Notes: generated from the sequence alone by a model not told the origin. Positions 39,283 through 42,690 are shown, counted from the stretch's first letter. The stretch: DNA of 64,000 nucleotides from Nanobdellota archaeon (GCA_038045185.1 JBBSYO010000007.1:18-64017); one strand, 5' to 3'. Numbers and translations are program-made.

Positions 39283-40062
39283 TCTAATACTTTATTTAGC
39301 TCTTTAAAATATATAAATCTTTCTAAACAGGATCTCCTTGGGTCACTTACAAAACTGTTTCATTCATCCTCGTATAGATTTTGTTTTTGATTTCCACCTA
39401 CCACCGACCCGTTATAGGTGTCATCAATCTATGTTATTCCTTGCGGAATACGGGCTGAACTTTGTCTCAGGCCCTTCAGCGTTTTCCTTACGGAACAACG
39501 CCTGCCATTTTGACTATATATTTGGATTTTCACCAACTAGCTTCGTAAGCTGCCAAGCACATTTATTTCGGTGTGTGCAAGGAGCAGTGACATATTCACC
39601 GTTCTCTGATGAAGAACGATTACTACGGATTCCAGCGTCATGAGGGTGAGTTGCAACCCTCAATCTGAACTAGGCTGCAGATTATGAGATTGGCTTCTCC
39701 TTTCGGAGTGGCGACCCATTGAATGCAGCATTGCCGCGCGTGTGTAGCCCAGGGCATTCGGGGCGTACTCACCTAACGTAGCCCGTACCTTCCTCCCGGT
39801 TACCCGGGCAGTCTGTACAGTGTGCACGAAGCAACTGTACACGCGGGTCTCGCCTGTTACCAGATTTAACTGGTCACTTCACAGCACAGGCTGACGTCGG
39901 CCATGCACCTCCTCTCAGCGTGTCAGGTAAGCCCTTCAGACTGACCTTCATTCTGCTGTCGGTCCTGGTGAGGTTCACGGTGTAGAATCTAATTGACATT
40001 TGTGTTACAACTGTTAAAATGTTATAATAATTTAAATGCTTCAAAGAATAAAAAACATAGAT

Positions 40063-40133
40063 GGGCAGATCGTCTAATGATAAGACGCTGGACTCTCAAT
40101 CTTGAAATCCGGGTTTGATTCCCGGGCTGTCCA
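40063..40133 (+). ncRNA. tRNA-like cloverleaf, copy 2 (Ala-type acceptor, CUC anticodon loop)
   Basis: 71 nt with acceptor GGGCAGA/GCUGUCC, G3-U70 and A73. D arm GUCU-AAUGAUA-AGAC, anticodon arm CUGGA-CUCUCAA-UCUUG, T arm CCGGG-UUUGAUU-CCCGG. TTTAAAT lies about 29 nt upstream. Confidence 0.55.
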
Positions 40134-40246
40134 TCTAATACATTCTATTAATCAATGAAATATATAAATCTTTCTCTTAACAGCGAATTGTTATTTCTAA
40201 CAATTACCTTATGTCTCCATAAGGATCGGACTATATCTTCACTAAT

Positions 40247-40615
40247 TTAATAAATTAGCTTCTGGCATGTAGTCTCTGAGGGTTCTAGAATCAATTGGCA
40301 AGTTTTTCTAAAGGAATTACCATCATATTCTAATGTTCTTCTTAAGGACACCGGTACTAATCTCTCATATTCAGGTATTAATCTCTCTAAAGCATCTCTT
40401 GCTCCATCTATAACATATGGGGTATAGGCTCCCTTTTTCCTTGAACTTTGAAATAACTCATCAAGCACGGGAATGGTCTGTCCAGCCAATTCTTCATCTC
40501 TCTGATTTATAGCGTTCATCAATGAGCGCCACCTTTTAAGCATAGAATTATGTGCTCGTACTATCTTCACAATTCTATTATCCGTATAAATTCTTATCAT
40601 ACGAATAACATTCAA
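40247..40615 (-). CDS. Hypothetical 122-aa protein in the endonuclease position of insertion B
   Basis: ORF on the rRNA sense strand. Its stop lies 5 nt before the J8/7-like motif. No nuclease motif was recognised. Confidence 0.45.
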   Translation of the reverse strand: MNVIRMIRIYTDNRIVKIVRAHNSMLKRWRSLMNAINQRDEELAGQTIPVLDELFQSSRKKGAYTPYVIDGARDALERLIPEYERLVPVSLRRTLEYDGNSFRKTCQLILEPSETTCQKLIY

Positions 40616-40790
40616 TAAGCCAATATATAAATATTTCTATTCGTTACCTTTTTAAAGTAACACTAATTTTCTAGCCTTCCCTGCGGATTTTCTCTATTCT
40701 TTGGATTTTTAGTAATCATTAATCTCTCGCGAAATTAACTTCCTACCAAAGACTTAACGAGACGTTCCCGCAAATAGCCAAATTTTTTTC

Positions 40791-41219
40791 TTAACGTTCT
40801 TGCTCTAATTCTTTTAAGAGTTCCTTAGGCGTCTTTACTCTATCTGGAATTATTGACTTCAGTATTTTATCTCCAGAAAAGATATTGCAATTAAACTTTA
40901 AAGCCAGAGCAAGATAAGGAACATCTTTTTCGTGTCCTTTCAAAATCATCCTTGCTTCTTCGACTTTATCCTGAAAAATGTTCTCTTGGATAAACTTTAT
41001 CTGTCTCTCTATAAAAATAAGAGCTTTCTCAGCTTCTTTCAGCGTATAGCTTGTTCTTTGAGCTATCTCCGAAGTATATTTACCCAACTCTATATAAAGA
41101 AACTCTGGAGCAATAAATTCGTATTTCTTCTTTTGCGCATTTAGCTTAAATATATTTGAAGAATTACCTATGCCAAGTATTGCTGAGAAAATAACGTTAA
41201 TATCCACAACTAAGAACAT
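40791..41219 (-). CDS. PIN-domain (VapC-like) nuclease inside 16S insertion B
   Basis: 142 aa. The N-terminal MFLVVDINVIFSAIL and the C-terminal DVPYLALALKFNCNIFSGDKIL are typical of PIN toxins. Confidence 0.75.
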   Translation of the reverse strand: MFLVVDINVIFSAILGIGNSSNIFKLNAQKKKYEFIAPEFLYIELGKYTSEIAQRTSYTLKEAEKALIFIERQIKFIQENIFQDKVEEARMILKGHEKDVPYLALALKFNCNIFSGDKILKSIIPDRVKTPKELLKELEQER

Positions 41220-41220
41220 C

Positions 41221-41460
41221 TTAAAGATTGTATTTCTTTTTGTGATGTTCCCACATTGCCGTATTAATTTTATCGCTTAATTCCTCTACATCTTTTTCAG
41301 TCGCTTTAGATTTTGAGACAATTCTCTCAAATTCTTCAATTTCCTCTAGCTCTTGAAGACTCTTTTTAATAGCATTTGCTATTAAAATAGACAATCCTAC
41401 CTTGAGCATATTTGCTCTTTGCTCTAACTCATCTGGAATTTCTATCTCTATCTTTTTCAT
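41221..41460 (-). CDS. Antitoxin-like 79-aa helical protein coupled to the PIN gene
   Basis: Its stop is 1 nt from the PIN ATG. The sequence is acidic and helical (IEIEIPDELEQRANMLKVGLSILIANAIKKSLQELEEIEEFERI). Confidence 0.5.
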   Translation of the reverse strand: MKKIEIEIPDELEQRANMLKVGLSILIANAIKKSLQELEEIEEFERIVSKSKATEKDVEELSDKINTAMWEHHKKKYNL

Positions 41461-42690
41461 ATAATTCCCAAAAGTTCTAACTTAATAAACTCTTCGTTGA
41501 GCAGAACGTTAATTGTGCGGCAATATAATTCACCGCACGCGTCACCCGTTGTAGTACTCCCCCGCCAATTCCTTTAAGTTTCGGTCTTGCGACTATACTT
41601 CCCAGGTAGCACACTCTCCGGCTTCCCTACAGCACTGAGACCTCTCGAAGAGGCCCCAATGTTCAGTGTGCAGTGTTTACTGCTAGGACTACATGGGTAT
41701 CTAATCCACTTTGCGCCCCTAGCCTTCATCCCTCACCGTCGGATCCGTGCTCGTAACGTGCCTTCGCGGTTGTTAGTCCGTACAGGATCAACCCATTTTA
41801 CCGGTACTCTGTACGTACTCGTTACGCCTCCCGGTCCCTAGCTCTGCAGTATCTCCCGCTCGTCGACCCTTGAGAGGCCGGATTTCACAGGAGACTTACG
41901 AAGCTGGCTACGGATGTTTTAGACCCAACAAATGTGGTTGCGACTTGGACTGCGGGGATTACCGCGGCGGCTGGCACCCGTCTCTCCCAGTCCTTATTCT
42001 TACGCCTTTTTACAGCGCAAAAAAGTTGTTCAAAATACTGAGCAACACGTTGGCTTACTCTGTCACGCTTGCGCGCATTGCAGAAGTTTCCCGACTGCTG
42101 CACCCCGTAGGGCTGGGAGTAGTGTCTCAGACTCCCTCTCAGGGTTTCCTCGCTAAAGGCCCTTATGGATCATCGGCTTGGTGGGCTATTACCCCGCCAA
42201 CTACCTAATCCACCGCAGCCCCATCCTCACAACATCGTTCAGCGATTCCACATTCCAGTAGGTATCGCCTATCGGTGCTTAGCCTCAGTTTCCCGAGGGT
42301 ATCACCGGCGTGAGGGCAGGTTAGCTACGTGTTACTGAGCAGTACGCCTTCTTTCGAAAGACTTGCATGTCTAAGTGTAAACCAACGAGCCGCAACCGCC
42401 AGCAGGATAAACTGGATTTAGAATATGATTATCATATCTAGGAAACATCGTTTCTAACGCGATGGAGATTTCACGGAAGAGTCCGCTAATCTACTATCCT
42501 GAACACACAACCTCCAATATTGATTGTTAAAAGATGTGATGAGTATTGACGGTCACAGAAAAATATTACAACGTAGTATTATGCATACATCATACCCAAG
42601 CATACGTCCGTCGACAAAAACGTCGCGCAACGCTTAACTAAGGCACTCATCACGATTAACATCTTAGGTAAGTTTTTTGTGCTCGGATAG

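Follow-up and report, generated by a model that had tools for sequence, protein, structure and literature searches.

Within a 64,000-nt stretch of DNA from a Nanobdellota archaeon (GCA_038045185.1, JBBSYO010000007.1:18-64017; the whole stretch is called the window hereafter), the 16S rRNA gene is interrupted by a 1,535-nt insertion, here named insertion B or intron B, which is a group I intron by its fold, covariation and anatomy and is predicted to be self-splicing. In the reading that we consider probable, this intron belongs to a known family of DPANN archaea and carries its cargo in three cassette loops, including a toxin-antitoxin (TA) pair which is selfish and, most likely, also protects the intron it resides in. 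Loop L2 would hold a type II TA-like operon in which a PIN_2 nuclease follows a ribbon-helix-helix (RHH)-like partner, L6 an orphan open reading frame (ORF) of fast turnover, and L9.2 an opposite-strand element derived from tRNA-Ala. An original prediction, made by reading the sequence only, had placed the insertion at 39995..41530, within 1-2 nt of the borders given below, and the ORFs, core motifs and tetraloop hairpins it listed are all present. Its inventory was correct as far as it went, but it lacked the pairing of P1 with the internal guide sequence, the terminal G, the closing stems P2, P6 and P9.2 and the third cargo, an antisense tRNA-like module.

The interrupted gene and the intron have the following extents.

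42418..39523, minus strand: 16S rRNA gene according to Rfam, with its true 3' end GGAUCACCUCCU near 38535
41531..39997, minus strand: whole group I intron (insertion B), 1,535 nt, in the 16S gene, starting with G41531 and ending with G39997 (omegaG)

On the sense strand, the two junctions read ...GCGUGCGGU / GAAUUAUAUUGCCGCAC and ACACAAAUG / UCAAUUAGAUUCUACACCG, the 5' exon ending in GCGUGCGGU (last base 41532) and the 3' exon beginning with UCAAUUAGAUUC (first base 39996). Joining of both exons gives GGU-UCAAUU, which matches the conserved GGUUUAAUU or GGUU(U/C)AAUU of helix 30/31, and the Rfam small subunit (SSU) alignment picks up again exactly at the start of the 3' exon. Counted from the 907-926 primer site, the insertion lies between what we take to be positions 955 and 956 of E. 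coli 16S rRNA. The same site is also occupied by homologous introns in loci L133, L137 and L005 (related loci are denoted by L numbers throughout). GC content is 29-42% in intron B and 48-62% in the exons, which reach a normal archaeal 16S score of 972 bits in Rfam. Intron B is found on six contigs from different samples, five of them at 99.7-100% identity over its full length; in the sixth, L005, it differs in L6 and in the tRNA-like module. Contigs identical to the window originate from Hainich groundwater metagenomes, the longest measuring 348 kb, and since relatives are labelled Woesearchaeota and Pacearchaeota, the host is regarded as a DPANN archaeon. Contig L133 (LCNU01000021.1), which likewise carries a 955/956 intron, was deposited as 'Candidatus Amesbacteria', a bacterium of the candidate phyla radiation (CPR), and scores 1047 bits with the SSU_rRNA_archaea model; most likely it is mis-binned.

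All parts expected of a group I intron can be assigned in intron B.

41515..41538, minus strand: P1, formed by the 5' exon GUGCGGU (41538-41532) and the internal guide GCCGCAC (41521-41515)
40669..40781, minus strand: P3 5' strand, J3/4, P4, P5 with its extension, P4' and P6 5' strand (GGCUAGAA)
40226..40290, minus strand: P6 3' strand (UUCUAGAACC), P7 5' strand (UCAGAGACUA), P3' (AUGCCAGA), P8 hairpin and J8/7 with P7' (GAAGAUAUAGUCCGA), matched by Rfam Intron_gpI
40224-40207, minus strand: P9 with a GAGA loop
40205-40186, minus strand: P9.1 with a GAAA loop

At the 5' splice site, P1 presents the wobble pair U41532·G41521 and is recovered in the minimum free energy fold; its pairing is identical in L137 and differs by one base in L133. 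The 3' border reads ...ACAAAUG followed by UCAAUU, with the terminal G at 39997, and the introns of L133, L134, L137 and L140 end in the same way. Between these borders, core motif GGCUAUUUGCGGGAAC (P3/J3-4/P4) is located at 40779-40764 and core motif GAAGAUAUAGUCCGA (J8/7-P7') at 40240-40226, while the P5 extension consists of a P5b hairpin capped by GCGA. The core motifs named in the original prediction fit into a group I fold that includes the P3/P7 pseudoknot. On the window, the Rfam model Intron_gpI (RF00028) scores 50.1 bits (40207-40369) with a gathering score of 50. For the intron of L137, which occupies the same site in a host of 86-88% exon identity and has no L6 cargo, the same model yields 84.9 bits (E=2.3e-22) in an alignment that takes in P3, P4, P5, P6, P8 and P9.

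Covariation was counted over 46 pairs of P3, P4, P6, P7 (pseudoknot), P8, P9 and P9.1 in eight introns, namely intron B, those of L005, L133, L137, L140 and L142 and the two introns in the 23S gene of the window. Here, 97.5% of cells were paired, and compensatory changes occurred at 24 of the 46 pairs, among them 5/6 pairs of P9 and 5/7 pairs of P9.1. None of 500 shuffles reached any of the measures, and sliding the partners reduced pairing to 30-47%. Moreover, the P3-P4...P4' pattern matches three times in the window, i.e. in its three introns, compared to no match in 100 shuffles. The common core and the compensatory changes in P3, P4, P6, P7, P8 and P9 thereby bear out the claim that insertion B and the 23S introns form one family. 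By this resemblance to the 23S introns, which sit at large subunit (LSU) sites LSU/1923 and LSU/1931, intron B may be assigned to subtype IB4.

Outside of the core, intron B contains three cargo loops, L2, L6 and L9.2, each closed by a stem, and none of its three ORFs matched a homing endonuclease family of the LAGLIDADG, GIY-YIG, HNH, His-Cys box or PD-(D/E)xK type in Pfam or NCBIfam.

41503..41512, minus strand: P2 5' strand UUAACGUUCU, a perfect 10-bp complement of 40800-40791
40011..40183, minus strand: L9.2 module of roughly 160 nt, closed by CUGUUAA (40183-40177) and UUAACAG (40017-40011)

P2 encloses the entire TA operon, and its 3' strand AGAACGUUAA (40800-40791) coincides with the last codons of the PIN gene, CAA GAA CGT TAA. 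The same TA cassette is found in the same place in L137 and L140, closed there by the stems UUAAC/GUUAA and CCGAAAU/AUUUCGG, respectively. The intron of L133, at the same site as intron B, is devoid of P2 and the TA cassette, P1 running into P3 via UAAAAUU. In case of L6, the closing stem P6 is formed by CUAGAA (within 40676-40669) and UUCUAG (within 40290-40281), and the loop content varies widely: a 93-aa ORF in L005, one of about 77 aa in L133, a 61-aa membrane ORF in L140, a 95-aa ORF in L142, an IS240-like transposase fragment and a 66-aa ORF in L134, and nothing in L137. The L6 region of L134, a 955/956 intron from Woesearchaeota, comprises at 125-1058 a zinc-finger ORF and an apparently frameshifted IS240/rve-like DDE fragment (E about 8e-4); this loop seems to have received an insertion sequence. 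At L9.2, L137 has a different stem (GUCUAC/GUAGAU) with no module inside. The Hainich variant of intron B in L005 is 99% identical in the TA region and displays a different but compensated P8 hairpin. Each cargo cassette apparently comes with its own archaeal box resembling a transcription factor B recognition element (BRE) and/or TATA box, which may serve as a promoter.

The L2 cassette consists of two ORFs and an upstream box.

40791..41219, minus strand: PIN_2 ORF, 142 aa, putative toxin (PF10130, 79.4 bits, E=3.8e-22)
41221..41460, minus strand: 79-aa partner ORF, putative RHH-type antitoxin, judged by gene order and the partners of homologues
41482..41489, minus strand: TATA-like box TTTATTAA, 21 nt ahead of the start codon (ATG) of the antitoxin ORF

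The PIN ORF begins one base after the stop codon of its partner. Its acidic residues D6, E44, D99 and D117 are conserved in an alignment of 24 homologues, and its nearest solved structure in a PDB profile search is the PIN domain of PAE0151; the classic VapC PIN family PF01850 reaches only 13 bits. A partner of 74-85 aa, 46-66% identical to the 79-aa ORF, precedes every PIN homologue whose upstream region was on the contig, and precomputed matches to PF26688 (RHH_12) exist for two of these homologous partners. Hence, the PIN-domain ORF described earlier proves to be a bona fide PIN_2 protein with a conserved small upstream partner. A box A(A/G)AA(A/G)TTTATTAAG(T/C)T is found at constant distance in the intron copies of L137, L140 and L142 as well as in the chromosomal copy of L007, and DNA similarity to the latter (73%) begins at intron position 31, upstream of the TATA-like box. 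Since the box is conserved in L007 and the similarity starts upstream of it, the cassette seems to bring its own promoter, from which a leaderless mRNA would be transcribed. The original prediction had held that target-site duplications around the pair would indicate an unrelated secondary insertion; none was found around the TA cassette, whose flanks instead form the 10-bp inverted repeat of P2, though a 6-nt duplication is formally possible because the shared AACGTT is palindromic.

Homologues of the PIN protein were grouped by genomic context into 12 clusters, the window included. In 4 of the 12 contexts the gene lies in L2 of the intron family described here.

Window PIN: L2, 16S site 955/956
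P0012 (L137/L138): L2, same 16S site 955/956
P0004 (L142-L144): L2, same three-slot layout with identical P2 3' strand; fragments carry no exon
P0013 (L140): L2, in a 23S insertion located just past LSU model position 555; same layout, tRNA-like module included

The other 8 contexts are ordinary protein-coding neighbourhoods of the chromosome, and the closest homologues (74%, 66% and 62% identical) all occupy such non-intron sites together with the same partner gene. The nearest one, in L007 (74%), is located between the enolase gene and rpsB. The window shares this block (Rrp4 - RNase PH - Rpb6 - enolase ... S2) with no TA pair in it; its own TA copy lies about 3 kb past S2, inside the 16S intron. 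Intron-borne PINs do not form a group of their own in a rough neighbour-joining tree but are interspersed with chromosomal ones. PIN-bearing hosts share only 86-88% 16S identity, and two rRNA genes are involved. From these data, the PIN pair is, as far as genomic context can tell, a mobile TA cassette that repeatedly lives in this intron family. The earlier argument that a second TA family in the same introns is no coincidence is strengthened by the PIN pairs in L2 of L137, L140 and L142 and by a ParE/RelE homologue in L059, yet that account was incomplete, as the PIN proteins most similar to that of the window belong to TA pairs at ordinary chromosomal sites.

Some further loci were inspected in this context. 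A VapBC pair in bacterial L057 was considered as intron cargo and rejected: the pair lies in the 16S-23S spacer of this GC-rich bacterium (3806-4620), flanked by direct repeats of about 45 nt and downstream of an intron near 16S position 1498, which itself is a cargo-less element of 265 nt. L107, also bacterial, likewise has a VapBC pair adjoining a group I intron and may be a similar case. In L007, a GC-rich segment of about 120 nt in AT-rich surroundings (4570-4700) separates a divergent 102-aa gene from the antitoxin-PIN pair and might be a structured RNA.

In loop L6, the following features are found.

40247..40615, minus strand: ORF122, with a TTG start at 40615 and an in-frame ATG at 40600
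40624..40661, minus strand: hairpin GUUACUUUAAAAAGGUAAC followed by BRE/TATA-like box AGAAATATTTATATA, upstream of ORF122

The tail of ORF122 overlaps P6', P7 and P3' and reaches into P8. Among 5.8 billion proteins, no homologue other than ORF122 itself was found, Pfam and NCBIfam gave no family match, and comparison with the other small intron ORFs revealed no significant similarity. A single-sequence AlphaFold2 model is uninformative, its predicted local distance difference test (pLDDT) score being 51. In L002, where the region is 99.7% identical, a 1-nt insertion shifts the frame after residue 82 (counted from the ATG) to give 92 aa, and the 35 C-terminal residues lost thereby are those that overlap P6', P7, P3' and P8. 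Unrelated ORFs fill the same slot in L005, L133, L134, L140 and L142. No support was found for the earlier suggestion that ORF122 is a maturase or novel endonuclease: it is an ORFan with no family match and an uninformative model, frameshifted in one near-identical copy and replaced in relatives. It behaves rather like one of a pool of small, fast-turnover cassettes, as the comparison of intron copies suggests. In L005 and L133, the L6 ORFs are likewise preceded by the hairpin and the box (consensus AGAAA(T/G)(A/G)TTTAWATA), as is, in L007, the chromosomal gene of 102 aa that neighbours the TA pair. A match to the C/D-box RNA sR5 inside ORF122 (25.6 bits against a threshold of 40) was treated as chance.

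The L9.2 module has a tRNA-like element on one strand and putative expression signals on both.

40058..40139, plus strand: tRNA-Ala-like element (cloverleaf 40063-40133), antisense to the rRNA, 47.9 bits with Rfam tRNA
40175-40161, minus (sense) strand: BRE/TATA-like box AGAAAGATTTATATA
40056-40043, minus (sense) strand: oligo-T run
Reverse complement of 40038-40030, plus strand: TATA-like box

ARAGORN does not call this element. It displays G3·U70 and A73, a T arm CCGGG-UUUGAUU-CCCGG, a D loop AAUGAUA and CUC at the anticodon position, and its flanks AGAU/AUCU lengthen the acceptor helix by 5 bp. Over six copies, the cloverleaf with its acceptor extension is 92.9% paired, 7 pairs being changed on both sides, and 0/500 shuffles score as high. 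All six copies retain G3·U70, A73 and an invariant T stem, and five of them the T loop UUUGAUU (UUUAAAU in L140). Of the tertiary signature, U8, A14, G18, U54, U55 and A58 are present, with G19-C56 swapped for A19-U56; accordingly, the D loop lacks GG and keeps G18. A stable and conserved anticodon arm is not seen in the six copies, as its stem is 76.7% paired and the anticodons read CUC (three copies), GAU, GCG and GUC. A covariance model of the module gives 64-102 bits for the module copies, 50-56 for spacer tRNA-Ala genes and 34.5 for the tRNA-Phe of the host; because the spacer tRNA-Ala genes outscore tRNA-Phe, the module is probably derived from tRNA-Ala. In an alignment of seven copies, both boxes of the module keep a constant distance of 22-26 nt to the respective end of the central helix. 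As to the expressed strand, the plus strand has in its favour the tRNA-specific tertiary signature and the G·U pair, the sense strand the BRE/TATA box and the putative terminator.

Further copies of the module sit at the 3' end of the 955/956 introns of L133 and L134, in disrupted form in that of L005, truncated in the L142 intron, again at its 3' end (on a fragment that does not include the host site), and in the 23S intron of L140. It is also found in insertion A, a second insertion in the 16S gene of the window, under repeat families D1 and D3, and in the equivalent insertion of L134. The copies in insertion A and L005 are broken by hairpin inserts of 57-65 nt: in insertion A (39142-39288, plus strand) 65 nt interrupt the copy after tRNA position 9, and in L005 (1289-1424) the 3' strand of the T stem and the acceptor strand are replaced by a three-hairpin insert of about 60 nt. 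No bulge-helix-bulge is evident in the folds of these interrupted copies. Searches of 120 other intron loci did not find the module, and a viral origin was discarded after IMG/VR gave no matches.

How these observations fit together may be pictured as follows. Intron B would be transcribed within pre-16S RNA and fold via its long-range stems. An external guanosine would then attack after U41532, in the U·G pair of P1, and the freed exon would attack after terminal G39997, by which helix 30/31 is rejoined. The TA pair would be a selfish cassette, present also at ordinary chromosomal sites in relatives, and since the host removes the intron from its rRNA, an intron loop would offer it a harmless landing place. 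Once resident, the pair would most likely guard the intron, because deletion of the intron also loses the antitoxin gene. Toxicity of the PIN protein, its neutralisation by the partner and the resulting addiction effect are predictions in this scheme.

Several points weigh against it. The fold requires stems closing loops of 700 nt (P2) and 372 nt (P6), translation of the cargo may interfere with it, and transcription of the rRNA might, in principle, stop at the conserved oligo-T run on the sense strand of the intron (40056-40043). As for the covariation, its structure was hand-drawn from the same eight sequences in which it was evaluated, with an artificial GAAA loop in place of L6, and the Intron_gpI score of the window is only at threshold, as the cargo splits the core in a way which the model cannot bridge. 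Assignment of the antitoxin draws on gene order and on the precomputed matches in homologues, and searches for an antitoxin fold in Pfam (8 partners), in NCBIfam and by PDB profiles returned weak or chance-level matches only. The survey of metagenomic rRNA insertions for PIN and RelE genes, suggested along with the original prediction, turned out differently for the two: at 121 randomly sampled metagenomic matches to the core pattern, about half of which carry LAGLIDADG genes, a PIN hidden Markov model detected PIN_2 in 0/315 same-strand ORFs, whereas one ParE/RelE homologue was found by tblastn, in L059, a 23S fragment with the intron-core pattern. With no PIN at 121 loci compared to 4 of 12 PIN contexts, TA cargo is rare in the wider family and recurrent in the clade of the window.

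Finally, neutral hitch-hiking accounts for the same data as an addiction benefit, and the alternative that TA pair, orphan ORF and tRNA-like module simply gather in neutral loops, with no help to the persistence of the intron, has a real, if less than even, chance of being correct. It agrees well with the 8 of 12 contexts in which the same TA pair resides at ordinary intergenic sites, with a cargo that is modular and often missing (L133, L137), with the IS240-like transposase fragment that also landed in L6 of L134 and with L6 ORFs that are orphans, one of them frameshifted. It fits less well with the state of the intron-borne pairs, since none of the four PINs is shortened or lacks a catalytic residue and each retains a closing P2 stem, nor does it readily explain why the association extends across hosts of 86-88% 16S identity and two rRNA genes. 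Furthermore, TA-bearing introns of this layout have no homing endonuclease, which is where a stabiliser would matter.

An extended proposal regards the introns as a modular cassette-carrier lineage with functional cargo, in which TA addiction replaces the homing endonuclease and the tRNA-like element is an expressed small RNA that moves from one intron to another, unrelated one as a miniature mobile element bounded by CTGTTAA/TTAACAG. The tRNA-like RNA would then act as an alanine-accepting mimic, as one half of a sense/antisense pair or, given a PIN toxin that cleaves tRNA, as its decoy or substitute. Taken as a whole, we regard this proposal as unlikely.

That intron B does not splice itself appears very improbable. 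In this case, host enzymes such as the bulge-helix-bulge endonuclease would excise it, the 16S rRNA would be fragmented, or the gene would be a dead copy; archaeal rRNA introns described before 2018 were indeed mostly of the bulge-helix-bulge type (PMC6125680), and the many long inserts could cripple a ribozyme. The catalytic core, however, is intact and covarying, and the U·G pair of P1 and the terminal G fall exactly on the exon borders. By eye, at most 4 complementary bases exist between the junctions, too few for a bulge-helix-bulge, no systematic search having been made. A fragmented or dead gene is at odds with exons scoring as normal archaeal 16S (972 bits) and with the presence of the intron on six contigs from different samples, including that of 348 kb.

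Least credible of all is that PIN, alone or with its partner or ORF122, serves the intron as a new homing endonuclease or maturase. In its favour, PIN domains are nucleases, and an intron lacking any recognisable homing endonuclease is nonetheless shared at one site by several lineages and present at another site in 23S. Against it, the closest PIN homologues (74%, 66% and 62%) accompany the same partner gene outside introns, the protein consists of the PIN_2 domain only and has no additional module for binding DNA, the intron of L133 does without PIN, and ORF122 is an ORFan not conserved even among near-identical introns. A group I intron with a selfish and probably protective TA pair hence remains the reading that we prefer.

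The remaining insertions belong to the same archaeal rRNA operon, identified on the minus strand of the window by Rfam and a tRNA gene search.

38321..38251, minus strand: tRNA-Ala gene
37809..32580, minus strand: 23S rRNA gene

The 23S gene contains tandem introns of the same family (33990-35915, minus strand), one at LSU/1923 and one at LSU/1931, with a mini-exon of 8 nt, CUUAAGGU, between them. Among the window introns, only that at LSU/1923 encodes a LAGLIDADG gene. The LSU/1931 intron carries a 91-aa orphan ORF in L6, an antitoxin-like ORF with a ParE/RelE-family toxin in L8 and, in its 3' tail, a 57-aa predicted membrane ORF (34163-33990). The toxin, described earlier as RelE, is confirmed as a member of the ParE/RelE family PF05016 with 34.9 bits. 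Insertion A (38656-39571, minus strand, 916 nt) splits ...ACACACCG / CCCGUCA of the 16S gene around position 1401 of E. coli. Group II models D1-D4 match it weakly (RF01998, 37.4 bits, 39036-39121; RF02003, 20 bits), and it contains a 75-aa orphan ORF (38758-38985). A perfect 28-nt inverted repeat (32554-32581 and 37959-37986) brackets the 23S gene and is probably a pre-23S processing stem. Between rpsB and the 16S gene, a 571-aa ORF (42801-44516, plus strand) shows faint repeated matches to helix-turn-helix and HNH_repeat families; in the 348-kb contig L002, this region is split into four short ORFs, and the gene may thus be decaying.

Group I introns are thought to persist via homing endonucleases and to decay once these are lost. 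Against this background, addiction suggests itself as a second persistence strategy for a lineage that lacks an endonuclease and has, in different hosts and both rRNA genes, a TA pair in one and the same loop. Even in very small genomes, independently expressed cassettes can apparently find a safe place within genes that are essential and highly transcribed, namely in the outer loops of their self-splicing introns. The tRNA-like module constitutes a separate lead, with its conserved acceptor stem of alanine identity and its variable anticodon, and it is absent from the searchable literature. On the practical side, cargo-laden rRNA genes of this kind break 16S assembly, primers and annotation.

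Among known systems, the archaeal IB4 group I introns reported by Nawrocki, Jones and Eddy in 2018 (PMC6125680) are closest. These comprise 36 LSU and 3 SSU introns in rRNA genes of DPANN archaea, the SSU introns all being located at position 1498 and the sole recognisable cargo being LAGLIDADG endonucleases (PMC6125680). Hosts of Woese-, Pace- and Micrarchaeota type and the same host genes are common to both sets, and the window 23S introns at LSU/1923 and LSU/1931, which share their core with intron B, occupy IB4 sites of that study. In contrast, intron B is located at SSU 955/956 and carries no endonuclease but a TA pair, an orphan ORF and a tRNA-like module. In ultra-small groundwater bacteria of the CPR, rRNA genes were found in 2024 to contain several long group I and group II-like insertions with ORFs in their loops, 90-99% of the annotated ORFs being homing endonucleases (PMC11270868). 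Insertion A matches the group II-like class described there at 16S position 1400; the hosts in that work are bacterial, and its main text makes no mention of toxin-antitoxin or tRNA-like cargo. More generally, no description of TA or tRNA-like cargo in rRNA group I introns was found in the searchable literature, only homing endonucleases and intervening sequence (IVS) proteins.

The TA pair itself resembles type II VapBC systems in the small partner being encoded first, in the PIN gene starting 1 nt after its stop codon, in the four acidic residues, in the RHH-type matches of homologous partners and in the scattering of the pair over chromosomal sites. It differs in that the toxin belongs to PIN_2 (PF10130) and not to the classic VapC PIN family (PF01850), its toxicity and neutralisation being predicted, and its location in a ribozyme loop is new. 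TA cassettes are known to stabilise integron cassette arrays, as in the Vibrio superintegron, and genomic islands. By analogy, the proposed role of the pair in a dispensable or mobile segment would be to penalise deletion, except that what would be protected here is a self-splicing intron, contained in an essential rRNA gene that is probably present in single copy. For the tRNA-like module, the tRNA-like domain of tmRNA, which has alanine identity, and the tRNA-like 3' ends of plant viruses offer a comparison. The window element shares with them an acceptor and T-arm mimic, here with G3·U70 and A73, and a variable part in place of the anticodon arm, but it is a full cloverleaf of 71 nt, including a D arm and a loop of U33 type, and comes from an archaeal intron, to which it is antisense; its aminoacylation is hypothetical. 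IStrons, finally, combine a group I intron with IS200/IS605 elements (bioRxiv 10.1101/2023.11.20.567912) and likewise unite a ribozyme with an unrelated selfish module, splicing rendering the insertion harmless. They are, however, bacterial, carry TnpA/TnpB at the 3' end and employ the ribozyme in the service of the transposon, while the cargo of intron B is housed in internal loops. Compared with all these systems, the 16S site for an archaeal IB4-like intron and the three-slot architecture with TA and tRNA-like cargo would appear to be new.

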